Shown: positions 2,808 through 64,000 of the stretch, piece after piece
How the letters are laid out: each line of letters begins with the position of its first letter
How positions within the stretch are numbered: position 1 is the stretch's first letter
Assembly: GCF_044324785.1 (NCBI RefSeq)
Contig: NZ_CP172127.1
Reading direction: 5' to 3' (one strand)
Source of the DNA: Escherichia coli
Lineage (GTDB): Bacteria; Pseudomonadota; Gammaproteobacteria; Enterobacterales; Enterobacteriaceae
DNA: 64,000 bases
Notes under the pieces: model-generated
Seen by the model: the letters and a program-made list of their open reading frames with translations, nothing else
What the model was told of the DNA's origin: nothing
Database searches by the model: none
Made by a program: the position numbers and the translations under genes

Positions 2808-4944
2808 GATGCTGGCTTATTAGATTCAGTACGTCGCGCACGCTGTCGAGCATAGGCGTACCTGGACCATAAATCGCCGCCACGCCGCGCTCTTGCAGGA
2901 AGGCGTAATCCTGCGGCGGAATGACGCCACCGGCGACTACGCAGATATCTTCGCGTCCCCATTTTTTCAGCGCTTCGACCAGTTCCGGGATCAGCGTTTT
3001 ATGGCCGGCAGCCAGTGAGGATGCGCCCACTACGTGAACATCATTTTCTACTGCCAGGCGGGCGATCTCTTCAGGTGTAGAGAACATCGGGCTTAAATCT
3101 ACGTCGAAACCGAGATCGGAATAGGCGCTGGCGATCACTTTCGCGCCGCGATCGTGCCCATCCTGGCCCATTTTGGCGATCAGAATGCGCGGGCGACGAC
3201 CATTGTCGGCAAGGAACTGCTCCGTTTGCGCAACAATGGCATCGAACTCGGTGGCCGATTTCTCAGACTGATGATAGCTTTGCGCAATCACGCCGGTAAC
3301 ACACTGGCTTGGCACCAGATAACGGTCAAATGCCGCTTCCAGCGCATCGGAAATTTCACCAAGCGTTGCGCGAACGCGAGCGGCATTAACAGCGGCAGCC
3401 AGCAGGTTTTCGTTATGCTGTGCGGCGTGAGTCAGGGCGTTCAACGTGGCGGTTACGGCGGCATCATCACGGGTGGCGCGAATGCGTTCCAGTGAAGCAA
3501 TCTGCTCGTTACGCACCATCACGTTGTCGATCTCAAGTACATCGGTTTCGTCTTCGTGATCCAGTTTGTACTTATTGACACCAACGATGACACGCTTGCC
3601 CTGGTCGATCAACGACTGTTCGCGCGCGGAGGCCTCTTCGATCATTCGTTTTGGCAGACCTGCTTCGATCGCTTTCGCCATGCCACCGGCTTCGTCGATC
3701 TGTTGGATAATGGCTCTGGCTTGTTTGACGATTTGATCGGTCAGTGATTCAACGTAATAGGATCCGGCCAGTGGATCGACGGTGCGGCAGAGTTCTGATT
3801 CTTCCTGAATGATGATCTGGGTATTGCGGGCAATGCGTGCTGAGAAATCGGTAGGCAAACCAAGCGCTTCATCAAAGGCGTTGGTATGCAGTGACTGAGT
3901 ACCGCCCAGCGTTGCAGCCAGTGCTTCAATGGTGGTGCGGATAACGTTGTTATACGGATCCTGTTCAGTCAGGCTCCAGCCTGAGGTCTGGCAGTGGGTA
4001 CGCAGCGCCAGTGATTTAGGATCCTGTGCGCCAAATCCACTGACCGCTTCGCTCCATAAAAAACGTGCCGCACGCAACATGGCGACGTTCATAAACAGAT
4101 CCATGCCGATGCCGAAGAAGAACGACAGGCGAGGAGCGAAGTCATCAATTTTCAGCCCAGCGGATATTGCTGCTTTGATGTACTCAATCCCATCGGCGAG
4201 CGTAAATGCTACCTGCTGCACGCAGTTGGCACCCGCTTCACCCATGTGGTAACCGCTGATACTGATGGTATTAAATCGCGGCATGTTGCCGGAACACCAG
4301 GCGATGATGTCGGCGATAATGCGCATTGACGGTTTTGGCGGGTAAATATAGGTGTTGCGGCAGAGGTACTCTTTGAGGATATCGTTTTGAATGGTGCCGG
4401 TCAGTTTATCAGGTGTAACACCTTGCTCTTCCGCGGCGACGATATAAAACGCCAGTACTGGTAGCACTGCGCCATTCATGGTCATCGAAACCGACATTTT
4501 ATCCAGCGGGATCTGGTCGAACAGGACTTTCATATCTTCCACGGTGTCGATAGCGACGCCCGCTTTGCCGACGTCGCCCGCCACGCGTGGGTTATCGGAG
4601 TCGTAGCCTCGGTGGGTGGCAAGGTCAAACGCAACGGAAAGACCTTTTTGCCCGGCGGCCAGGTTACGGCGATAAAAAGCGTTGGACTCTTTTGCTGTTG
4701 AAAAACCAGCATACTGACGGATGGTCCACGGTTGGGCGGTATACATAGTGGCACGCGGGCCACGAACGTAGGGAGGCAAACCAGGAAGGGTACCTGTCAC
4801 CTCCAGATTATCGAGATCGGCTTCGGTATACAGCGGCTTGATGGCGATCCCTTCCGCGGTTTGCTGAACCAGCGAGTCGACAGTTTTCTCCCGACGGCTC
4901 AATTCCTTGTTGGCAAGCTGTTGCCACTCCTGCACGTTAGACAT
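2800..4944 (-). CDS. scpA: B12-dependent methylmalonyl-CoA mutase (Sbm), 714 aa
   Basis: ORF 2800..4965 trimmed to ATG giving [16 protein letters not shown]12-binding DxHxxG motif (GQDGHDRG) near C-terminus. Confidence 0.9.
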
Positions 4945-5147: not shown

Positions 5148-6041
5148 TTAATCCTGACGAAGGACTTTGTGACCATAATCGAGTAACGCATCAGTGACTT
5201 TACGCATCATGCGGCTTTCAGGAGCAAAGCGGTGCCAGTAGAGCATCCGTCGTTGAAATAGCCCAGGCGTTAAGTCAATCAGTTCACCGCTGGCCAGCTC
5301 TTTCTCGATTTGCAGGTGCGGGATCATACAGCAGGTGGTGCCCTGGCGAGCAAGTTGCACGAACGCTTCTGAAGAATTAACGATATGGCACGGTACGCTG
5401 CCTGGGGGCAGATCGAAGTTTTGCTGCAAAAAGGCCTGGTGCATATCGTCAAGATGGTCAAAGGCGACCACTGGCGCTTTTAGCAGAGCCGAACGCGTTA
5501 CGCCGTTAGGGAAATATTTTTCGGCAAACGGTTTTGAGCTGACGAACAGATAGTCGAGCGCACCGAGCTTATCGACAAGACAACTCGGCAGCGCCTGATG
5601 TTGAATACTCACCGCGCCGACCACTTCGCCGCGGCGCAGACGTTCCTGAGTGCGGGTTTCATCTTCTACCTGCAAGTTGAGGCGGATAGGCGAATCAGCC
5701 AACACAGGAGCCAGCGCCGGAAGCAACCACGTCGCCAGACTGTCGGCGTTGACCGCCAGTGAAAGCAGCAGCGGAGTCGAACCGGTTTGTTCATCGCCCA
5801 GCCACTCTTCTTCCAGCAACTCCACCTGGCGTAGCAGTGCCAGCAGTTTTTGCCCTTGTTCTGTCGGGCGCGGTGGTACGGTACGCACCAACAGCGGCTG
5901 CCCGAACATATTTTCCAGTTGCTTAATGCGCTGTGAGACGGCTGATTGTGTAATGCACAGCTTTTGTGCCGCGCGCTCAAATCCTCGTTCACGTATCACC
6001 GCATCCAGTGCCTGTAATGTTCTGTAGTCCGGGCGTTTCAT
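5148..6041 (-). CDS. argP: LysR-family transcriptional regulator ArgP/IciA, 297 aa
   Basis: ORF 5148..6107 trimmed to ATG giving [43 protein letters not shown] (HTH). Confidence 0.9.
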
Positions 6042-7106: not shown

Positions 7107-7338
7107 TAAAAAAATTCTCTTCATTAAATTTGGTGACATGTGTCACGTTTTTACCTGGCTATTGTCGATTGCTCTAAATAAACCCTCTAAACCAGCATAT
7201 TCATCCAAGAAATACCTTTGCGTGATATTTCCTCAACATCGCGACGCAAACGTTCATATTGCCGCAATATTATTTTTTGATATGTTGAAAGGCGGATGCA
7301 AATCCGCACACAACATTTCAAAAGACAGGATTGGGTAA

Positions 7339-10304: not shown

Positions 10305-10883
10305 ATGTCTATACAGAACGAAATGCCTGGTTACAACGAAATGAACCAGTATCTGAACCAACAAGGGACGGGTCTGACCCCTGCTGAGATGCATGGTTTA
10401 ATCAGCGGGATGATATGTGGCGGTAACGATGACAGCTCATGGCTGCCGCTACTTCACGACCTGACGAACGAAGGCATGGCTTTCGGTCATGAGCTGGCAC
10501 AGGCACTGCGTAAAATGCACTCTGCCACCAGCGATGCCCTGCAGGATGACGGCTTCCTTTTTCAGCTTTATCTGCCTGATGGCGATGATGTCAGCGTTTT
10601 CGATCGGGCTGATGCGCTGGCAGGTTGGGTCAATCACTTCCTGCTTGGTCTTGGCGTTACGCAACCGAAGCTGGACAAAGTGACCGGCGAAACCGGTGAA
10701 GCCATCGACGATCTGCGTAACATCGCGCAGCTGGGCTACGACGAAGACGAAGATCAGGAAGAGCTTGAAATGTCGCTTGAAGAGATCATCGAATACGTTC
10801 GTGTTGCCGCGCTGTTATGCCACGACACCTTTACTCATCCGCAACCGACCGCGCCAGAAGTACAAAAACCGACTCTACACTAA
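10305..10883 (+). CDS. ygfB: UPF0149 family protein YgfB, 192 aa
   Basis: ORF 10299..10883, start at second ATG ([17 protein letters not shown]). Confidence 0.85.
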
Positions 10884-33359: not shown

Positions 33360-33428
33360 CAGTGTTTCTCCTTTCGCCCGCCAGAGTAAAAAGCAACCGT
33401 TTACGTTAATGAAACTGTCTAAACACAT

Positions 33429-33443: not shown

Positions 33444-33794
33444 GTTTTTGCGAGGAAGGGGAGTTAGAGACAGGAATTGCGGAGGCAATCACATAATCGT
33501 GGTTAAACCACGAAAATGAGAAGAGAACCTGACAATGGAATTATCTGTAATTTTCTCATATTGATATTTCATTAATCATTCTGGCATGTCGCACTCTCGC
33601 TTTTAATCGTTTTTATCTGGATAGCGCTCTTTTGGTCGGCAATGTTGAAATAATGAAAGCGGCACAGATTGAGGGGCAATAATTTGAACTCAGTCGCAAA
33701 ATTATAATTAAAACGGTCATGCTACCTAATATATGCCCGTTTATTGCATCGCGAAATTTGAGAAGACATAACTCATTAAATGAAAGGGATGCAA

Positions 33795-37640: not shown

Positions 37641-38960
37641 TTAGTTGCGTTCGTACACCAGACGACCATCAACGTAGGTGCGGTAGATCGAACGGTCATC
37701 GCCCAACGTCATCATCACGAACAATTTGTCGACTAAAGAAACAGAGTTGTCATAGCGCAGCTGCTGTAGCGGAGTGGCGGTGGGTTCCATCACCACGAAA
37801 TCAGCCTCTTTGCCAGGTAAAAAGTTGCCAATCAAATCGTCAAGGCCCAGAGATTTCGCTCCGCCGAGCGTGGCCAGGTAAAATGCTTCATATGCCGAGA
37901 GGCGATAGCCTTGTAGTTGCAACACTTTGTAGGCTTCGTTTAGCGTTTGCAGCATGTTGAAAGTTGTTCCGGCACCGATATCCGTTCCCATGCCCACTTT
38001 GACTTTCTTCTGCCATGCTTTTTTCAAGTTGAATAAGCCGCTGCCGAGGTAAAGGTTGGAGGTCGGACAGAAAGCAATGCTGGATTTGGTTTCGCTGAGA
38101 CGATCCCACTCTTTTTCTTCGAGATGGACGCAGTGAGCAAAGACACAGTTTTTACCTGTCAGGCCATACTGGTGATAAACATCCAGATAGCCATCATGTT
38201 CAGGATAAAGTTCTTTCACCCAGGCAATTTCATCTTTGTTTTCACAGAGATGGGTATGTACCCACGTATCCGGATATTCTTCTTTCAGGCGTTGCGCCAT
38301 CGCCATCTGTTCAGGTGACGATGTTGGGGCGAAGCGTGGTGTAATGGCATATAACAGACGGCCATTTTTATGCCAGCGTTCGATCAGTTCTTTGCTTTGG
38401 TGATAGCTACTTTCCGCCGTGTCGAGCAGATAATCTGGCGCATTACGGTCCATCATCACTTTACCGGCAATCATTCGCATATTGATATGACTGGCGGCTT
38501 CAAACAACGCATCCACAGATTGTGGATGAACCGTACCAAACACCAGTGCCGTAGTCGTACCGTTACGTAAAAGCTGCTTGATGAAGAACGCCGACATTTC
38601 GCGGGCGTACTCTAAATCCTCATAACGACGTTCAGTAGGGAAGGTGTGTTTATTCAACCACTCCAGCAATTGCTCACCATAGGCTCCCACCATTTCACTT
38701 TGCGGATAATGGATATGTGTATCGACAAAGCCCGGTACTATCAGTTTGCCGCGATAGTCGCGCACGCGAATGGTGTCAGGAATTTGATGCTTTCCGTTTT
38801 CCCATTCGCCAAACCATTCCACTTTTCCCTGTTTAATAAGTAATAAACCATCCTCAATAAACCGCAGCGCAGAGGCAATCTCTTCCGGGTTATCGACCGT
38901 ACGGGTGACATCAATAAAACTGCCTCGTACCGCTTTTAACGTGTGTTCTCCTGACATCAT
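37641..38960 (-). CDS. guaD: guanine deaminase (amidohydrolase superfamily), 439 aa
   Basis: ORF 37641..39080 trimmed to MMSGEHTLKAVRGSF; metal-binding VDTHIHYPQ. Confidence 0.9.
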   Translation of the reverse strand: MMSGEHTLKAVRGSFIDVTRTVDNPEEIASALRFIEDGLLLIKQGKVEWFGEWENGKHQIPDTIRVRDYRGKLIVPGFVDTHIHYPQSEMVGAYGEQLLEWLNKHTFPTERRYEDLEYAREMSAFFIKQLLRNGTTTALVFGTVHPQSVDALFEAASHINMRMIAGKVMMDRNAPDYLLDTAESSYHQSKELIERWHKNGRLLYAITPRFAPTSSPEQMAMAQRLKEEYPDTWVHTHLCENKDEIAWVKELYPEHDGYLDVYHQYGLTGKNCVFAHCVHLEEKEWDRLSETKSSIAFCPTSNLYLGSGLFNLKKAWQKKVKVGMGTDIGAGTTFNMLQTLNEAYKVLQLQGYRLSAYEAFYLATLGGAKSLGLDDLIGNFLPGKEADFVVMEPTATPLQQLRYDNSVSLVDKLFVMMTLGDDRSIYRTYVDGRLVYERN

Positions 38961-44236: not shown

Positions 44237-45565
44237 TTATGCCAACGCATCCATCCGACGCCACATACTGGCAGCGGCTTTTCTGGCTTGCGCATAAATG
44301 GAATCGCAATCGAAGTTAAACTGACGGTCTTCATAGACCATCACGCCATTGACCATCACGCTATGAACGCTGCCTGAGCCCATACCGAAAGCGATATGCC
44401 CGGCGATATTGTCTGCCAGCAGCGGTGTCGGCGAGTTGTAATCGCAAATGGTTAAATCGGCTTTGTAACCGGCTTCCAGAAGGCCAAATTTCGCGCCAAA
44501 GTTGCGGCTCATCAGTTCGTTGCCGTTAGCCAGTGCTTTGGCAAAACTGTCAGGCCACAGCGGACCACCCGCATCGCGATGTTTAAAGAAGGCAAATTTC
44601 ATCTCTTCAAACATGTCCGAACCAATGCCGTCCGTTCCCAACGCCAGATTGCGGATGTCGCTAAGGTGATGGTTGTAGCCGACATGGTTGTTCATGTTTG
44701 AACGGGCGTTATGCACCAGGAACGCATCGCGCTGATTGAGTAGGGCGATGTCATCTTTCGACAAGTACAGCCCATGAGCGACCAGCGTTTTGCTGTCGAT
44801 GAGATCGAATTGCGCCAGTCGTGCCAGCAGGTCTTTGCCGTACCAGTGGTGACTGTAGGAAACGTCATAAAGGTCTTCCGCAGCGTGAATATGCAAACCA
44901 CGACCTGTGGCTTTCACGGCTTCACGCAGCATCTCCAGACCGGCATCCGGCACGGTAAACGGCGCGTGAGCGCCGATATGTGCTTCCACCAGATACGGCT
45001 CGGTTGCTGCTTTCTTCGCCTCATCAATCTGACGGGCGAAGCGGATGTTTTCTTCTACACCTTCCTGCAACTCTTTGATGCCGTTGTTACGGTCAGTAGT
45101 TTCAAAACAGGTCATCGCGCGCAGGCCAACTTTTAAAAATGCGTTGCGCAATGTGGAGAGCGACCCGCCGATATACGCCGGAGAGGCATGGTGATCGATA
45201 ACCGATGTACATCCGCTCTTAATTGCTTCCAGGGTACAAATCAGTCCGCTGTAATAGAGCGACTCTTCATCAAGGGCGCGATCGAGTCGCCACCAGAGAT
45301 TTTTCAGCGTTGAGATGAAATCCGGGCAGGGGGCGATGTTTGCCATAATTCCGCGGGACAGCCCCGAGTAAAAATGGTTGTGCGAGCAGACAATTCCCGG
45401 CATCACAATCCGACCATGCATCTCTTTGTAGCTGGCATCGGGGTAGCGTTGCGTCAGGGCATCGCCGATAGCGACAATCACATCATTTTCGATGGCGATA
45501 TCAACGCCTTCCTGCACTTTCGCCGGGTGTAACTGCACTGCGGTGACATTCTTCAGAATCAACAT
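44237..45565 (-). CDS. ssnA: amidohydrolase-superfamily hydrolase (chlorohydrolase/aminohydrolase-like), 442 aa
   Basis: Metal-binding HxH (VCSHNHFYSG); full ORF. Confidence 0.85.
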   Translation of the reverse strand: MLILKNVTAVQLHPAKVQEGVDIAIENDVIVAIGDALTQRYPDASYKEMHGRIVMPGIVCSHNHFYSGLSRGIMANIAPCPDFISTLKNLWWRLDRALDEESLYYSGLICTLEAIKSGCTSVIDHHASPAYIGGSLSTLRNAFLKVGLRAMTCFETTDRNNGIKELQEGVEENIRFARQIDEAKKAATEPYLVEAHIGAHAPFTVPDAGLEMLREAVKATGRGLHIHAAEDLYDVSYSHHWYGKDLLARLAQFDLIDSKTLVAHGLYLSKDDIALLNQRDAFLVHNARSNMNNHVGYNHHLSDIRNLALGTDGIGSDMFEEMKFAFFKHRDAGGPLWPDSFAKALANGNELMSRNFGAKFGLLEAGYKADLTICDYNSPTPLLADNIAGHIAFGMGSGSVHSVMVNGVMVYEDRQFNFDCDSIYAQARKAAASMWRRMDALA

Positions 45566-48666: not shown

Positions 48667-48748
48667 AACCCTCTCCTTAGCTTATACAGATATCATTGAG
48701 TGACCGGTGTTGAGAAATCCGGTGGTTTAGGGGGATAGAGCAACAATC

Positions 48749-48764
48749 GCACCACTCTTGCCAG
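48749..48764 (-). promoter_or_regulatory. candidate sigma54 promoter upstream of ygfK (CTGGCAAG-N4-GTGC)
   Basis: Minus-strand CTGGCAAGAGTGGTGCG read by eye; GG/GC spacing correct; ~85 nt upstream of ygfK ATG. Confidence 0.35.
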
Positions 48765-48833: not shown

Positions 48834-48987
48834 GGTGCCAAATGAGAATTAAAATCACTCCTGAAAATTATTATTGCCAGCCCATTTATCACTTTTTCTC
48901 TTTTCTCAAAATCAGTGATTCCTTATCATTATGATAAAGAGAACTGGAAGGGTTAAATATTTGAACGCAATCGTTTAACTACGTTTT

Positions 48988-54570: not shown

Positions 54571-55782
54571 TTATTCGGTTGCCAGCCAGCTTAACGGGAT
54601 TGCAGCGTACATCGCGGCACAGGTCACCAGGTGAGATTTCCAGGTTTTTTCGTTAGGTGCATGCGCTTCAGGTTCTTTACCCGGGCCAAAGCCGATCACC
54701 GGAATGCCGTGACGGCCCATGATAGATACGCCGTTAGTTGAGAAGGTCCACTTATCAACAACCGGCGCTTTGCCAAACAGCCCTTCGTAGGCATTCACCA
54801 GTGCTTTAACGGTGAAGTGATCTTCTTCCACTTTCCAGGTCGGGAAGTAGCATTCGGTTGGGTAAACCAGGCCAGTCCAGGACGGACGGTCGTAGTTGTA
54901 CATAGAAACAACCGCGTTAGCTTTCTGTACTGCAGGCAGGGCGCGGATTTCGTCCAGCGCGCCTTCCCAGGTTTCGCCCCAGGTCAGACGGCGGTCAATA
55001 GAGACGGCGCAGCTATCTGCTACTGCGCAACGGCTTGGGGATGTGAAGAAGATTTCAGAAACGGTGAGGGTGCCTTTGCCGAGGAATTCGTCATAACCCA
55101 GACGTTGGGAGAGTTCTTGTAATTCGCCAAGAATCGGACCCATTTTGAAAATGGCGTTGTCACCGCGTTCTGGTGCAGAACCGTGGCAGCTAACACCCTG
55201 AACATCAATACGAATTTCCATACGACCGCGTTGACCACGGTATACCTGGCAATCAGTCGGTTCAGTACTGACCACAAATTCCGGGCGAATGCCGGATTGT
55301 TCAATAATGTACTGCCAGCACAGACCGTCGCAGTCTTCTTCCTGCACCGTACCGGTAACCAGCAGGGTATATTCATCTTCCAGACCGAGGTCTTTAATGA
55401 TTTTACCGGCATAAACCATAGAGGCCATGCCGCCTTCCTGGTCGGAAGTACCGCGACCACCGATCAGTTCATCAGTTTCCATGCCTTCGTACGGATCGAA
55501 GTCCCAGTTTTTGATGTTGCCAATGCCGACGGTATCAATATGAGCGTCCATTGCCACCAGACGCGGGCCGTGGCCGATATAACCGAGAACGTTGCCCATC
55601 GGGTCGATTTCAACTTTATCGAAGCCGACTTTTTCCATCTCTTCTTTAATACGATGTACTACGCGTTTTTCATCGCAGCTTTCACTGGGAATAGCAACCA
55701 TATCGCGCAGAAAGCGAGTCATGTCTGCCTGGTAATCTTTTGCTTTTTCAAGAATCAGTTTGAATGGAATATTCTTAGCCAT
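54571..55782 (-). CDS. ygeY: M20-family metallopeptidase/deacylase (ArgE/DapE-like), 403 aa
   Basis: Full ORF; M20 family features (e.g. HIDTVG). Confidence 0.85.
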
Positions 55783-57093: not shown

Positions 57094-58284
57094 TTATTTC
57101 ACGCGTTCTTGCGCTTCTTTCAGCAGTTGCTCGAGCAGTGCACCTGGTTTGGCGTATTTACGGGACAGGATCATCGCGGCGATGATATAAGGCTTCCAGC
57201 TGGCTTCTTTGTAGGTCGCGATACGGTATTTTTCGAATACGCCTTCAGTCACTTCACCTTCTTTGCAGGATACGCCGCTGATATCAGCTGGCAGGCAGTG
57301 CATGTACAGGGCTTCGCCATCACGGGTCAGTTCCATCATCTCTTCGGTGCAATGCCAGTCTTTGTGCTGAGCGTTCTGCGCCAGACACTGTTTTTCCAGT
57401 GCTTTTAAGCCTTCGTGATCGTTAGCGCGCAGCAATTCAGTACGCTCTTCCATCACTTTGTAAGGTGCCCATGACTTCGGATAAACGATGTCTGCGTCTT
57501 TGAAGGCTTCTTCCATGCTGGTGACCTGACGGAAGCTACCGCCGGAGGCTTTAGCATTGTTTTTAGCGACTTCAACGACATCCGGGATCAGGTCGTAGCC
57601 TTCCGGATGGGCCAGGGTGACATCCATACCGAAGCGAGTCATCAGACCGATGATGCCTTGTGGTACAGAGAGCGGTTTGCCATAGCTTGGGGAGTAGGCC
57701 CAGGTCATGGCGATTTTTTTACCTTTCAGGTTTTCCAGTGAACCAAAGTGTTCACGTAACCATGCGAGGTCAGCCATTGACTGAGTCGGGTGGTCAATAT
57801 CGCATTGCAGGTTCACTAAAGCCGGACGCTGCGGCAGTACGCCCTGCTTGTAGCCGTCATCAAGTGCAGCGCCAACTTCACGCATATAAGCGTTGCCTGC
57901 GCCCAGATACATATCGTCACGAATACCGATGGCATCGGCGCAGAAGGAGATCATATTGGCGGTTTCACGCACGGTTTCGCCGTGAGCGATTTGTGATTTG
58001 CCTTCGTCGAGATCTTGCTGTGCAAGGCCGAGCAGGTTAAGCGCGGAAGCATAAGAGAAGCGGGTACGGGTGGAGTTGTCGCGGAATACGGAAATACCTA
58101 ATCCACTATTAAAGACTTTGGTTGAGATGTTTTCAGCACGCAGTGCTTTTAATGCTGCGGCAACGTCCAGTACTTGTTTCAGTTCATCTGGCGTCTGTTC
58201 CCACGTTAACAAAAAATCTTTCTCGTGAAGGTGAGAGGTCAGCGAATTGATATCCTTAATCAGCTCATTAACAGTTTTCATCAT
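57094..58284 (-). CDS. ygeW: carbamoyltransferase (ATCase/OTCase family) of unknown substrate, 396 aa
   Basis: Carbamoyl-phosphate-binding STRTR motif and HCLP motif both present. Confidence 0.85.
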   Translation of the reverse strand: MMKTVNELIKDINSLTSHLHEKDFLLTWEQTPDELKQVLDVAAALKALRAENISTKVFNSGLGISVFRDNSTRTRFSYASALNLLGLAQQDLDEGKSQIAHGETVRETANMISFCADAIGIRDDMYLGAGNAYMREVGAALDDGYKQGVLPQRPALVNLQCDIDHPTQSMADLAWLREHFGSLENLKGKKIAMTWAYSPSYGKPLSVPQGIIGLMTRFGMDVTLAHPEGYDLIPDVVEVAKNNAKASGGSFRQVTSMEEAFKDADIVYPKSWAPYKVMEERTELLRANDHEGLKALEKQCLAQNAQHKDWHCTEEMMELTRDGEALYMHCLPADISGVSCKEGEVTEGVFEKYRIATYKEASWKPYIIAAMILSRKYAKPGALLEQLLKEAQERVK

Positions 58285-58760
58285 AAAGTCCCGGTAGTGG
58301 AATGACAGGCAAAGAGGTTTATTTCACTGTGACTTGCCAAAAGTGATTGGTCTTTTCACAGCTATACCTGGGACTAACAATAACTATGCCAGAATTATCC
58401 AAGCGGCTGCAAAAGACTAATTTGACGGGTAATGTGTGGGGTTGATCACAAATTGATGCCAGCTTCTGGTTGTTTGTAAAATACGAAAACGTTTGGCTTT
58501 TTTTATCGCGTTATTTATTTGCTGCTAAGTATCAGAAATAAGATAAAGGGGCAGGTTATCCCTCGTCAGTTTGATAAACTCACCGCCGTAATTCTCATAT
58601 TGATATAGAAATGTGATATCTCTTCCATAATTTCATTAGAAAGTGATAAAAATCTTATGTTTTTATCAAAGCCAATTTCGTCTGAGTTAATATCATCATG
58701 ATCTGTGAACCATCAACGTCTTCAATGATCGACTTTTAAGTAAGTCTGGAAGGTAAAGCT

Positions 58761-60539
58761 ATGGAGCTTGCTACTACGCAGTCAGTACTGATGCAAATTC
58801 AACCGACAATTCAGCGTTTTGCCAGAATGCTTGCCAGCGTTTTGCAGCTTGAGGTTGAGATCGTTGATGAAAACTTGTGTCGCGTCGCCGGAACGGGCGC
58901 GTATGGGAAGTTTCTTGGTCGCCAGTTGAGCGGCAACTCACGCCTGCTCCGCCACGTCCTGGAAACGAAAACTGAAAAAGTTGTGACACAATCTCGCTTC
59001 GATCCCCTTTGCGAAGGTTGCGATAGTAAAGAAAATTGCCGTGAAAAAGCATTTCTGGGTACGCCTGTCATTTTACAGGATCGTTGTGTTGGGGTGATAA
59101 GTTTGATTGCCGTTACCCACGAGCAACAAGAACATATCAGTGATAATTTACGCGAATTTTCTGATTACGTTCGCCATATATCCACCATTTTTGTTTCGAA
59201 ACTTCTGGAGGATCAGGGGCCAGGAGATAACATCAGTAAAATATTCGCGACCATGATCGATAATATGGATCAGGGCGTATTAGTTGTTGATGATGAAAGT
59301 CGGGTTCAGTTTGTTAATCAGACTGCCTTAAAAACACTCGGTGTTGTGCAAAATAATATTATTGGGAAACCTATCCGTTTCAGACCATTAACATTTGAGA
59401 GTAATTTTACCCATGGACATATGCAGCATATTGTTTCGTGGGACGATAAAAGTGAATTAATCATTGGTCAATTGCATAACATTCAGGGCCGACAATTATT
59501 TTTAATGGCGTTTCACCAATCGCATACCAGTTTTTCTGTAGCAAATGCACCTGATGAACCGCATATTGAACAATTGGTTGGCGAGTGCCGTGTTATGCGG
59601 CAATTAAAACGACTCATTAGCCGTATTGCACCCAGCCCATCCAGCGTTATGGTGGTTGGTGAAAGCGGCACGGGTAAAGAAGTCGTCGCCCGTGCAATCC
59701 ATAAGTTGAGCGGAAGACGGAATAAACCTTTTATTGCTATCAACTGTGCCGCGATTCCGGAGCAGCTTCTGGAGAGCGAACTGTTCGGTTATGTTAAAGG
59801 CGCATTTACTGGCGCTTCTGCCAACGGTAAAACAGGGTTGATTCAGGCGGCGAATACGGGCACGCTGTTTCTCGATGAAATAGGTGATATGCCATTAATG
59901 TTGCAGGCTAAATTACTGCGCGCTATTGAGGCGCGTGAAATTCTGCCGATTGGTGCCAGTAGCCCAATACAAGTCGACATCCGCATCATTTCTGCAACTA
60001 ATCAGAATTTGGCCCAGTTCATTGCCGAAGGTAAATTCCGCGAAGATCTCTTCTACCGACTTAATGTTATCCCGATAACTCTTCCACCGCTGCGTGAACG
60101 TCAGGAAGATATTGAACTACTAGTGCATTACTTTTTACATCTGCATACCCGTCGTCTGGGATCGGTTTATCCTGGCATTGCTCCTGATGTCGTCGAAATA
60201 TTGCGTAAGCATCGTTGGCCCGGAAACCTGCGCGAGTTAAGCAATTTGATGGAATATCTGGTTAACGTTGTTCCTTCAGGTGAAGTTATCGATAGCACGC
60301 TATTGCCGCCAAATCTGCTGAATAATGGCACAACGGAACAAAGTGATGTAACAGAGGTCAGCGAGGCGCACCTCGCACTCGATGATGCGGGCGGCACGGC
60401 GCTGGAGGAGATGGAAAAGCAAATGATCCGCGAGGCGCTTTCACGTCATAACAGCAAGAAGCAAGTTGCTGATGAACTGGGCATCGGCATTGCTACGCTC
60501 TATCGCAAGATTAAAAAATATGAGTTGTTAAACACATAA
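58761..60539 (+). CDS. ygeV: sigma54-dependent transcriptional activator (bEBP) with N-terminal sensor domain, 592 aa
   Basis: Walker A GESGTGKE, sigma54-contact GAFTGA, C-terminal HTH IGIATLYRKIKKY. Confidence 0.9.
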   Translation: MELATTQSVLMQIQPTIQRFARMLASVLQLEVEIVDENLCRVAGTGAYGKFLGRQLSGNSRLLRHVLETKTEKVVTQSRFDPLCEGCDSKENCREKAFLGTPVILQDRCVGVISLIAVTHEQQEHISDNLREFSDYVRHISTIFVSKLLEDQGPGDNISKIFATMIDNMDQGVLVVDDESRVQFVNQTALKTLGVVQNNIIGKPIRFRPLTFESNFTHGHMQHIVSWDDKSELIIGQLHNIQGRQLFLMAFHQSHTSFSVANAPDEPHIEQLVGECRVMRQLKRLISRIAPSPSSVMVVGESGTGKEVVARAIHKLSGRRNKPFIAINCAAIPEQLLESELFGYVKGAFTGASANGKTGLIQAANTGTLFLDEIGDMPLMLQAKLLRAIEAREILPIGASSPIQVDIRIISATNQNLAQFIAEGKFREDLFYRLNVIPITLPPLRERQEDIELLVHYFLHLHTRRLGSVYPGIAPDVVEILRKHRWPGNLRELSNLMEYLVNVVPSGEVIDSTLLPPNLLNNGTTEQSDVTEVSEAHLALDDAGGTALEEMEKQMIREALSRHNSKKQVADELGIGIATLYRKIKKYELLNT

Positions 60540-61943: not shown

Positions 61944-64000
61944 TCAAATCAATCCTGCCAGATGGAACTCTTCATATAACCGTTTTGGCGTCAGCGGCAG
62001 TGTATTGATTGCAACACCGGTAGCCATCTTCACCGCGTTACGAATAGCAGCGGCAACAGGAATTATGGGTGGCTCACCCAGTGACTTATGTCCGTATGCG
62101 GATTGCGGCTCATTGATTTCGACGAACGCGCTTTCCAGTTGTGGCAGATCCGGCATGGTCGGCATTTTGTAATCCAGCAGATTGGGGTTACGGACCACGC
62201 CGCTTTTCGCATCAATGATCATCTCTTCAAATAGCGCCCAGCCAATGCCCATTCCCATTCCGCCGTGTACCTGACCTTCTGCCAGTAGCGGATTAAGAAT
62301 ATGGCCCGAATCATGAACGTTGAGGATGCGGTTGATGGTGACTTTGCACAGCGCAATATCGATCGTCAGATCAACAAAGGTACAGCCAAATGCCGGTGGG
62401 TTAGTGGTGGTTTTGATGGAGCTTTCAGCAGAGAGCTGCCCGCCGCGTTCAGGGTGGTAGAAAGCGTCCATCGCCAAATCTTTTAACGACATTAACGGCT
62501 CTTCCGGTCGTTCAATCAGCACGATATGGCCTTTTATCAGGGTCAGATTCATCGCTGACTGATGTAGCATGACTGCGGCGTGAGCGATGATTTTCTCTTT
62601 TAATAACAGTGCCGCACTGCGCAGCGCAGGCGCGGCAACATAGCTCTGGCGTGAGGCAAATGCGCCGGGATCGAACGGCGTAACGTCGGTATCTTGTGTT
62701 GAAATAACGCGAACGTCGCTGACCGGAACCCCCACGGTTTCTGCCACCATTTGCGAGAAGACAGTGTCGGCACCCTGACCGATTTCTGTCGCGCCGCTTT
62801 GCACGTTGATGGTTCCATCCTGATTCATCAACAGGCGCGCGCCTGCTATTTCTACGCCGACAGGCCAGGTGTTAGAGGTGTAGCTAAAACAGGCGACGCC
62901 AACGCCGCGGCGTAAATTGCCTTGCTGGTTCTGGCACTCTGCACGGCGTTTTTCCCATTCAAAGATTTTCCGGCCTTTTTCAAGACACTCCGGCAACCCT
63001 GCGCTGTAAATACGTTTGCCTGTGAGCGGATTAGCATCTCCTTCGCGGGCGGCGTTGCGTAAACGAATTTCAACAGGATCAATACCTAACGCTGTCGCGG
63101 CGTCATCAAGCATAGACTCAACGGCAAATACGACTTGTGGCGCGCCATAACCACGCATCGCACCAGCCGAGGGGAGGTTGGTATAGCAGGTCTTTGAACT
63201 GTAAGCGTAGGCACAACGAGGATAAAGGTAAGCGACTTTATTCCCCCCCGCAGAAGCGATGGAGTGCCCGTGAGATGCATAAGCGCCGGTGTTAGACAGA
63301 ACATCCAGACTATAACCTTTCAATGTTCCGTCGCGGTTCACGCCCATTTGCCCGTCAATAGTGAAAGCGTGGCGGGTTCGGGTTGCGAGGAAACATTCTT
63401 CACGACTAAGGGAAACTTTCACCGGAATGCCGCCAAGCTTGCTGGTCAGGAATGCCGCCATTGGCTCTTCCAGAACATCCTGTTTATTACCAAAACCGCC
63501 ACCGACAAACGGTTTGATAACTCGTACGCATGACCAGGGAATATCCAGCGCCTGACCAACGACGCGGCGAACAATGTGCGGGATCTGGGTGCTGGAAACG
63601 ATGGTAATTCGAGAGTCATCCTCCATCCATGCCAGCGATGTCACGCTTTCCATGTGACAATGTTGAATGACCGGCGTCTGATAGTGCCCCTGTACCTGGT
63701 AGTCGGCGGCATCGATTGTTTGTTGGACATTACCCGTCGACATCGTGCTTTGTTTTAGTAAATTGCCGCCGTTATGGATTGGTGCAGCGTCATCTGCCAG
63801 CGCCGCTTCTGGCGTGGTGATAACGGGTAATTCTTGCCACTCAATGCTGACCAATTGCGCCGCTTTTTCTGCCGTGAGTTCATCACGGGCCACGACGATG
63901 GCAACGGCGTCACCATGATGACGAACATGGCGAGTTAGCAGTGCGCGATCGGCGGTATCGCGCTTGTTTTCGTCAAGTGTCCAGGCATGCCCAGCTGTAG
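61944..64000 (-). CDS. xdhA: xanthine dehydrogenase molybdopterin-binding subunit; 3-prime ~685 codons only, the start lies beyond the window end
   Basis: Frame stays open upstream of the ORF-track start through to position 64000; Mo-hydroxylase family sequence. Confidence 0.85.
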   Translation of the reverse strand, partial: TAGHAWTLDENKRDTADRALLTRHVRHHGDAVAIVVARDELTAEKAAQLVSIEWQELPVITTPEAALADDAAPIHNGGNLLKQSTMSTGNVQQTIDAADYQVQGHYQTPVIQHCHMESVTSLAWMEDDSRITIVSSTQIPHIVRRVVGQALDIPWSCVRVIKPFVGGGFGNKQDVLEEPMAAFLTSKLGGIPVKVSLSREECFLATRTRHAFTIDGQMGVNRDGTLKGYSLDVLSNTGAYASHGHSIASAGGNKVAYLYPRCAYAYSSKTCYTNLPSAGAMRGYGAPQVVFAVESMLDDAATALGIDPVEIRLRNAAREGDANPLTGKRIYSAGLPECLEKGRKIFEWEKRRAECQNQQGNLRRGVGVACFSYTSNTWPVGVEIAGARLLMNQDGTINVQSGATEIGQGADTVFSQMVAETVGVPVSDVRVISTQDTDVTPFDPGAFASRQSYVAAPALRSAALLLKEKIIAHAAVMLHQSAMNLTLIKGHIVLIERPEEPLMSLKDLAMDAFYHPERGGQLSAESSIKTTTNPPAFGCTFVDLTIDIALCKVTINRILNVHDSGHILNPLLAEGQVHGGMGMGIGWALFEEMIIDAKSGVVRNPNLLDYKMPTMPDLPQLESAFVEINEPQSAYGHKSLGEPPIIPVAAAIRNAVKMATGVAINTLPLTPKRLYEEFHLAGLI

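Follow-up and report, generated by a model that had tools for sequence, protein, structure and literature searches.

The ygeV gene of Escherichia coli, its divergent neighbour ygeW and the spacer between them were analysed in a 64-kb stretch of E. coli DNA (the window; contig NZ_CP172127.1). The window is 99.6% identical to E. coli strains SCU-102 and PCN033 and carries the locus in the reverse of its orientation on the K-12 map. YgeV, which differs from the K-12 protein at 2 amino acids, belongs to the activators of sigma-54-dependent transcription, and the spacer holds a sigma-54 site, the probable promoter of the ygeWXY-hyuA-yqeA operon, together with predicted YgeV-binding sites. The three parts of the locus are as follows.

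57094..58284, minus strand: ygeW, a knotted carbamoyltransferase gene (NCBIfam NF005538, 825 bits), first gene of the sigma-54-driven operon
58285..58760: ygeW-ygeV divergent spacer, 476 bp
58761..60539, plus strand: ygeV (uacR/isrR) coding sequence, 592 amino acids, a GAF-PAS-AAA+-HTH sigma-54 activator

A preliminary description of this DNA had singled out the spacer as AT-rich and unusually long, and every feature that it named was found here to within 1 nt. The 476-bp spacer (475 bp in K-12, to which it is identical at 463 of 476 positions) has a GC content of 36.8% against 51.7% for the window, with a minimum of 31% at 58500-58700. By the K-12 annotation no other intergenic gap in the cluster is as long, and sigma-54 sites lie in the four longest of these gaps (453, 475, 321 and 435 bp). 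For comparison we used 41 loci from at least 13 enterobacterial genera, retrieved with the YgeV sensor region as the query; ygeV and ygeW were divergent in all of the loci that covered both genes, with spacers of 407-609 bp. The spacer contains no open reading frame (ORF) of more than 32 amino acids, and an Rfam scan of it returned no family, only a chance microRNA match (E 0.7). The long ygeW-ygeV spacer is a genuine control region.

Domain organisation of YgeV

The features of the protein, all encoded on the plus strand, are listed with their positions in the window and, where given, in amino acids (aa).

58761..59210: N-terminal GAF-fold sensor domain, aa 1-150
59010..59039: Cx2Cx5C motif (C84, C87, C93) in a GAF loop between strands 73-75 and 97-105
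59085-59087: C109, a fourth cysteine, invariant in Enterobacteriaceae only
59232..59510: PAS domain, aa ~158-250, from Pfam PAS_8/PAS, model secondary structure and matches to the WalK and CitA PAS domains
59574..60344: AAA+ sigma-54 interaction module, including the lid domain
59658-59681: Walker A motif GESGTGKE, aa 300-307
59799-59816: GAFTGA loop, exact, aa 347-352
aa 369: Walker B motif LFLDEI
aa 426: R-finger region FREDLFYRL
60402..60521: Fis-type HTH_8 DNA-binding domain, aa 548-587, from Pfam

A Pfam scan matched PAS_8 at amino acids 162-201, Sigma54_activat at 272-439 (E 2e-70), AAA_lid_14 at 445-528 and HTH_8 at 548-587, the last with a column identity of 82% among orthologues. The N-terminal domain has the alpha/beta fold of a GAF domain, and GAF and PAS domains together account for the sensor of about 270 residues that the preliminary description had placed ahead of the AAA+ module. 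That description had also read YgeV as a full bacterial enhancer-binding protein (bEBP) from its GESGTGKE, GAFTGA and C-terminal helix-turn-helix (HTH) signatures, all of which are present along with a Walker B motif and an R-finger region. The AAA+ domain of YgeV has both Walker motifs and the arginine fingers expected of a bEBP; the protein also has the GAFTGA loop that contacts sigma-54 and a C-terminal HTH whose predicted cognate upstream activating sequences (UASs) accompany -24/-12 promoters at four sigma-54 sites. It is a one-component bEBP with the domain order GAF-PAS-AAA+-HTH. No match to a receiver domain (PF00072, Response_reg) was found in YgeV by the Pfam scan; the N-terminus is given over to GAF and PAS.

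Activators of the NtrC/NifA type resemble YgeV in their GAFTGA-bearing AAA+ module, C-terminal Fis-type HTH, palindromic UAS and looping to -24/-12 promoters. In contrast to NtrC, YgeV has no receiver domain and carries a GAF and PAS sensor. E. coli DhaR shares the GAF-PAS-AAA+-HTH order of YgeV, but DhaR uses sigma-70 and is without a functional GAFTGA, whereas the GAFTGA of YgeV is exact and its promoters are of the sigma-54 type.

The ygeW promoter and its upstream boxes

Positions such as -205 in the following list are relative to the inferred transcription start.

58376..58392, minus strand: sigma-54 promoter of ygeWXY-hyuA-yqeA, CTGGCATAGTTATTGTT, with GG at 58390-58389
58435..58450: CRP-like site TGTGATCAACCCCACA, centred at -77 and conserved as yGTGAy-N6-yCnCA
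58483..58498: PurR-like box AGCCAAACGTTTTCGT, centred near -125, 13/16 to the PurR consensus
58564..58576: predicted YgeV box W2, TATCAAACTGACG (minus strand), centred at -205
58593..58605: predicted YgeV box W1, TATCAATATGAGA (minus strand), centred at -234
48739..48755, minus strand: ygfK sigma-54 promoter GTGGTGCGATTGTTGCT, identical to the K-12 chromatin immunoprecipitation sequencing (ChIP-seq) site OS31
48922..48938: predicted YgeV box before ygfK, the perfect palindrome TTATCATAATGATAA, centred near -202
33732..33748, plus strand: ygfT (uacF) sigma-54 site TATGCCCGTTTATTGCA, K-12 site OS32
33552..33568: predicted YgeV box between ygfT and uacT, TCTCATATTGATA, with its centre near -199 relative to the ygfT start

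The ygeW promoter has its TGGCAT-N5-TTGTT core at 58391..58376 on the minus strand, which puts the inferred start of ygeW transcription near 58365 and gives a leader of about 81 nt. We scored sigma-54 sites with a position weight matrix (PWM) built from the 38 intergenic ChIP-seq sites of Bonocora et al. (PMC4591121) that remained once the four sites of this cluster were excluded. The ygeW site was the top match on both strands of the window at 14.85 bits, within the range of the training sites (7.6-21 bits), and the next match in the spacer scored 4.0. It matches the K-12 ChIP-seq site OS30, CTGGCACACTTATTGTT, 80 bp before ygeW (PMC4591121); the same table records sigma-54 sites before xdhA, ygfK and ygfT, and genomic systematic evolution of ligands by exponential enrichment (SELEX) with the RpoN holoenzyme gave a peak in the K-12 ygeV/ygeW spacer (PMC8743547). 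In all 41 spacers the best sigma-54 match toward ygeW was YTGGCAYNNTTATTGTT, and it stood 69-103 bp from the ygeW start codon in 40 of them and 208 bp away in the other (L041). The string TTATTGTT is invariant in the 41 spacers while the flanking DNA cannot be aligned.

The GG at -24 and the spacing agree with the sigma-54 consensus, with GT at -12 where the consensus has GC. Binding of sigma-54 to the site has been shown in K-12, by ChIP-seq in vivo and by genomic SELEX in vitro. Only three of the 42 intergenic sense ChIP-seq sites (pspA, pspG and ygeW) have this GT, which is a conserved property of the ygeW site because it is invariant in the 41 spacers. The preliminary description had reported a weak sigma-54-like match near 58375-58391 that lacked the -12 GC. 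The site is there, 1 nt away, and the GC is indeed missing, but a site that heads the PWM ranking, was recovered by ChIP-seq and genomic SELEX and recurs in 41 of 41 spacers is not weak. The same description left the target promoter of YgeV unsettled, a view that is outdated: sigma-54 sites have been mapped before xdhA, ygeW, ygfK and ygfT, and the YgeV iModulon covers these operons (PMC10602906). A sigma-54 promoter for ygeV itself was rejected, the best matches in that direction scoring below 11 bits and being unconserved in the spacers. Other matches of 12-14 bits in the window (5343-5359, 10494-10510 and 44811-44827) are probably intragenic.

An unbiased k-mer search of the 330 bp upstream of each of the four K-12 sigma-54 sites gave CTCATATTGATA as the 12-mer best common to the four control regions, with a summed mismatch of 2 against at least 4 in 200 Markov shuffles. 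We predict from this signal that the YgeV box is TATCA-N3-TGATA. Footprints in the otherwise diverged ygeW spacers read TATCAATATGAkA (W1, a perfect TATCA-N3-TGATA palindrome in several genera) and TTATCAAwyTG (W2); those upstream of xdhA read TATCAyAATGA, 12 nt, TCAwwwTGATA and place boxes at -130 and -153. When a PWM was trained on the ygeW and xdhA footprints only, the untrained ygfK palindrome ranked first in the window (20.8 bits) and the ygfT/uacT spacer site fourth. The window had seven matches of at least 15 bits against 0.57 in shuffles, and in 43 kb of K-12 such matches occurred solely in the four control regions. Box-like sites also lie inside ygeY (55531-55545, 15.8 bits) and guaD (38475-38489, 14.7 bits). 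The ygeY site, an exact CTCATATTGATA, was rejected as a real box and is probably due to chance because it is not kept in K-12 at 14 bits or more.

At three promoters of this one genome the promoter-proximal box has its centre near -205, -202 and -199, a near-constant distance between enhancer and promoter. Across genera, distances from the inferred ygeW start were held in nearly all spacers at -234 for W1, at -205 for W2 (both within 4 bp) and at -77 for the CRP-like site (within 2 bp), and the exceptions were shifted by about 10 or 20 bp, that is, by whole helical turns. Such conservation of the face of the helix is a prediction of a looped enhancer-promoter complex, and it accounts as well for the fact that the spacer cannot become shorter. 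NtrC sites have a 7-N3-7 palindrome geometry, as does the YgeV box; the UAS of YgeV at -205/-234 compares with the usual -100 to -150 of NtrC/NifA-type activators. A metagenomic contig (L048) that encodes a homologue with a sensor 31% identical to that of YgeV (P0075) carries a purine cluster in which three strong sigma-54 promoters are found (287, 4460 and 9930), and TATCA-N3-TGA boxes lie 120-180 bp before each of the three. Near xdhA, a conserved TTTTTAAnnnCATCACA is found about 40 bp upstream of the -24 element (K-12 locus L001, ~3190-3215) in all of the genera that have xdhABC beside ygeV. The xdhA gene of the window (61944-64000) appeared in the ORF listing as a 649-amino-acid ORF with a GTG start; a pseudogene was rejected, the short ORF being an edge artefact because the translated frame runs intact to the end of the window.

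Among the closest known systems is that of the clostridial regulator DioR, from the enhancer-binding protein group of Nie et al. (2019), whose predicted regulon is ygeW-ygfK-ssnA-ygeY, dpaL and xdh (PMC6615313). Its UAS, TTATCA-N3-TGATAA, is the YgeV box (for example ATTTATCATAATGATAAGG and TATTATCATTTTGATAATA) and is found 175-390 bp upstream of TTGGCAY-N5-TTGCT promoters (PMC6615313). The defining association of the DioR group, this UAS before sigma-54 promoters of ygeW, ygeX, ygeY, ygfK or ssnA genes, was found here too. The two regulators go with the same gene set (ygeW-ygfK-ssnA-ygeY, dpaL/ygeX, pyrC/hyuA-like and xdh), and DioR-type clusters also house distant homologues of the YgeV sensor. 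The sensors are only 25-40% identical, the enterobacterial proteins have the extra invariant C109, and the E. coli ygeW promoter differs in its -12 GT and its CRP-like and PurR-like sites. Gene context and motif suggest that YgeV and DioR may be orthologues.

Between the boxes and the promoter, the CRP-like site was located in 37 of the 41 spacers and stood at -77 to -79 in 36 of these. A native CRP site in this spacer and glucose repression of urate degradation have been stated (PMC12507026). The CRP-like site may supply catabolite control together with a DNA bend that aids looping in place of IHF. The PurR-like box is kept in about seven genera, including Escherichia, Citrobacter, Klebsiella indica, Atlantibacter, Yokenella and Trabulsiella, and boxes matching 12-13 of the 16 positions of ACGCAAACGTTTGCGT are present in all three control regions of the urate cluster that lie in the window. 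Six sites in the window reach 12/16: three are in the ygeW, ygfK and ygfT/uacT regions and a fourth is the known serA site (7244-7259). In a published list, ygeW belongs to a putative PurR cluster (PMC4576408). The remaining elements of these regions are listed here.

48965-48980: PurR-like box near ygfK
33391-33406: PurR-like box directly before uacT
58608..58629: conserved block GAAATGTGATATCTCTTCCATA adjoining W1, with a CRP-like TGTGA half-site
58688-58693, plus strand: possible sigma-70 -10 element of ygeV, TAATAT, not called by the consensus promoter scan
58688..58703: box-like TATCATCATGATC overlapping the possible ygeV -10, with the conserved core rTATCAT

The block at 58608-58629 is strongly conserved, reading ATATGGAAG...ATCACAtTT on the minus strand, and its perfect TGTGA half-site is directly beside W1. 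The rTATCAT core near the possible ygeV -10 hints at autoregulation.

An alternative is that the sigma-54 site before ygeW is poised and non-productive, with ygeWXY being transcribed mainly from a CRP-dependent sigma-70 promoter. Its ChIP signal is low (FAT 3) and its -12 GT departs from the consensus; Bonocora et al. emphasise that binding does not prove a site to be a promoter (PMC4591121), and both the CRP site and glucose repression have been reported (PMC12507026). Against this, the whole -24/-12 element is invariant and in fixed phase with the boxes in at least 13 genera, and ygeWXY is within the YgeV iModulon (PMC10602906). A scan of the spacer for sigma-70 promoters gave matches no commoner than in shuffles, and no conserved sigma-70 promoter was found toward ygeW, the sole sigma-70-like match overlapping the ygeW start codon. 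We regard the sigma-70 alternative as improbable.

Cysteines of the YgeV sensor

The CxxC-x5-C cluster noted in the preliminary description is present in the sensor as C84, C87 and C93 (amino acids 82-93, nt 59004-59039, read PLCEGCDSKENC) and is conserved far beyond the Enterobacteriaceae. These three residues and C109 are invariant among 37 enterobacterial orthologues. An exhaustive search for homologues of the sensor gave 612 cluster representatives, mostly proteins of 570-600 amino acids with the domain at the N-terminus; one candidate relative (P0088, 1566 amino acids, six matched stretches) was rejected as an ordinary multi-GAF protein without the cysteine motif. In sets of 87 and 71 distant full-length homologues (20-46% identity) the only invariant columns were C84, C87, C93 and G111, with C109 not kept, R41 and an AGTG loop (43-46) nearly invariant, and the exact Cx2Cx5C spacing retained in 86 of the 87. 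In the predicted structure the Cx2Cx5C loop, which is modelled confidently, forms a lid over the GAF pocket.

Given a cysteine cluster that is genuine and conserved to great phylogenetic depth, the metal or redox role that the preliminary description had suggested is a fair hypothesis. It is plausible that Cx2Cx5C holds a metal, an Fe-S centre or a redox-active set of thiols that gates the signal or aids its binding. Known proteins offer partial parallels. NorR, with mononuclear Fe, and VnfA, whose Fe-S depends on an N-terminal cysteine motif, also have a GAF domain ahead of a AAA+ sigma-54 activator module, with cysteine or metal sensing having been proposed; YgeV differs from both in its motif and in the motif's position, Cx2Cx5C in a lid loop between beta-strands, and its cofactor is hypothetical. 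The [4Fe-4S] ligands C20, C23 and C29 of FNR have the Cx2Cx5C spacing and an anaerobic physiology. FNR has an unrelated fold, a CRP-type domain whose N-terminal extension carries the motif, and in YgeV the fourth ligand is not family-wide: the Cx2Cx5C spacing is found in 86 of 87 distant homologues, while C109 is invariant solely in the Enterobacteriaceae. Profile alignment, at an hhalign probability of 8%, places FDPLCEGCD of YgeV on FDGHIACD of the GAF enzyme fRMsr (MsrC) and C87 at the catalytic cysteine of E. coli MsrC. That is the one cysteine aligned; MsrC Cys 66 and 76 have no YgeV counterpart, and YgeV is a regulator where MsrC is an enzyme in its own right.

The more specific proposal that Cx2Cx5C provides ligands to a redox-active metal centre, whether an Fe-S cluster or some other, making YgeV and DioR an undescribed class of cofactor-bearing GAF sensors, is a tentative one that we think has perhaps one chance in a few of being right. 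Were it so, the ligands would be the three cysteines plus C109 in enterobacteria, and the three cysteines plus an open or non-cysteine site elsewhere. We give a somewhat better prospect, though still short of even, to Cx2Cx5C being a purely structural zinc site or a means of packing the lid loop, with the GAF pocket or the PAS domain reading urate or an intermediate by ordinary binding, outside any redox or metal chemistry. Only three cysteines are family-wide, the motif is kept across many genomic contexts in a manner that fits stabilisation of the fold, the near-invariant R41 and AGTG loop could form an ordinary ligand pocket, and the urate cluster is described in the literature as urate-induced. 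Evidence on the other side is the alignment of the loop with the fRMsr active-site loop, C87 falling on the catalytic cysteine (at low probability), the identity of the spacing to that of the FNR Fe-S ligands, and a pathway that functions only without oxygen. Of five informative contexts of distant homologues, three were purine or urate clusters and two were unrelated operons; Cx2Cx5C therefore marks a sensor family and not urate specifically.

The similarity to DhaR would fit a different kind of input, in which protein partners acting on GAF-PAS control YgeV as DhaK and DhaL control E. coli DhaR, in place of a small ligand or cofactor. The sole E. coli NCBIfam model to reach into the sensor is that of DhaR (amino acids 97-589), and there is a weak PDB match to the DhaR GAF-PAS structure (4lrx, E ~1); a PDB sequence search with the sensor gave no match over amino acids 1-150. 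The similarity to DhaR is marginal, no candidate partner gene is conserved beside ygeV besides the pathway enzymes, and partners would leave the invariant cysteines unexplained. There is little probability that YgeV is controlled in this way.

Proposed control of the uric-acid cluster

Taken together, our findings make it likely that the spacer works as a looped control region for sigma-54, in which YgeV, with its cysteine-bearing GAF sensor, is the activator of the anaerobic uric-acid cluster. RNA polymerase with sigma-54 would form a closed complex on CTGGCATAGTTATTGTT ahead of ygeWXY-hyuA-yqeA, and YgeV would bind the two TATCA-N3-TGA(T/G)A boxes at -205 and -234. A satisfied sensor would allow YgeV to oligomerise and to reach the polymerase through DNA looping, whereupon its GAFTGA loops, with ATP, would bring about the open complex. 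The CRP-like site at its fixed -77 probably provides catabolite control and a bend that aids the loop, and the PurR-like boxes may add an input from the purine pool. Cx2Cx5C, in the lid of the GAF pocket, may contribute redox thiols or hold a metal or Fe-S centre, and so gate the signal or help to bind it. The same box stands before the sigma-54 sites of ygfK, ygfT and xdhA, and this suggests that YgeV activates the anaerobic reductive uric-acid pathway across the whole cluster. The literature fits such a role: the YgeV iModulon takes in the xdhA, ygeW, ygfK and ygfT operons (PMC10602906), ygeV is required for anaerobic urate use, and the gene has been renamed uacR, for urate regulator (Iwadate & Kato 2019, as relayed in PMC12623156).

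Several observations weigh against this account. W2 and the xdhA boxes are half-palindromic only, and the UAS at -205/-234 is farther from the promoter than in textbook cases. There is no IHF consensus (WATCAR-N4-TTR) between the UAS and the promoter, and in genera other than Escherichia and Citrobacter the CRP-like site has a degenerate right half. The PurR consensus, which we take to be ACGCAAACGTTTGCGT, had the serA site at 7244 as its sole control. Sigma-54 ChIP occupancy is low at ygeW (FAT 3) compared with ygfK (FAT 26), and we found no experiment in the literature showing YgeV on these boxes or directly activating these promoters. In the sensor, the family-wide cysteine ligands number three, not four, and the motif also occurs beside unrelated operons, so that a link to urate or oxygen is not required.

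Work on pathogens offers another role for the protein, as chiefly an indole sensor (IsrR) that controls the virulence genes of LEE (the locus of enterocyte effacement), with the purine link being secondary. Indole strongly induces ygeV mRNA in enterohaemorrhagic E. coli and an isrR mutant of Citrobacter rodentium is attenuated (PMC9426417). The same paper labels YgeV/IsrR an orphan response regulator, a label that does not fit because the protein is without a receiver domain. Of 5426 complete E. coli genomes, 5283 have the ygeV locus, and most of these lack LEE; the gene is always divergent from ygeW, its predicted boxes are at all four cluster promoters, and relatives across phyla are located in urate clusters. 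Of the explanations considered here we give this one the least credence, and activation of the uric-acid cluster is the role that we favour.

The gene, class, regulon and promoter of YgeV are already published. Earlier work includes the prediction of YgeV as a sigma-54 activator, the sigma-54 sites of the cluster's four promoters, the iModulon (PMC10602906), the anaerobic urate requirement and the uacR name, indole induction and the isrR name, the enzymology of the pathway and the clostridial DioR motif. We found no published account of the box positions in E. coli, their helical phasing or the invariant -12 GT, nor of the PurR-like boxes or the family-wide Cx2Cx5C in the GAF lid. The UAS map of E. 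coli and the cysteine-GAF signature are thus modest additions within a known system. The pathway has already been engineered by replacing this spacer (PMC12507026); a base-level map explains the length of the spacer and what its replacement loses, and it gives exact targets for mutagenesis.

YgeV controls the anaerobic removal of uric acid by gut bacteria, a pathway that has been linked to host urate levels and gout. If its sensor does carry a redox-active metal centre, oxygen or redox state would gate sigma-54-dependent catabolism of uric acid and amino acids, with the substrate possibly being bound at the unique metal site. The main question is what signal YgeV senses, and the three invariant cysteines of the GAF lid offer a direct way to test it.

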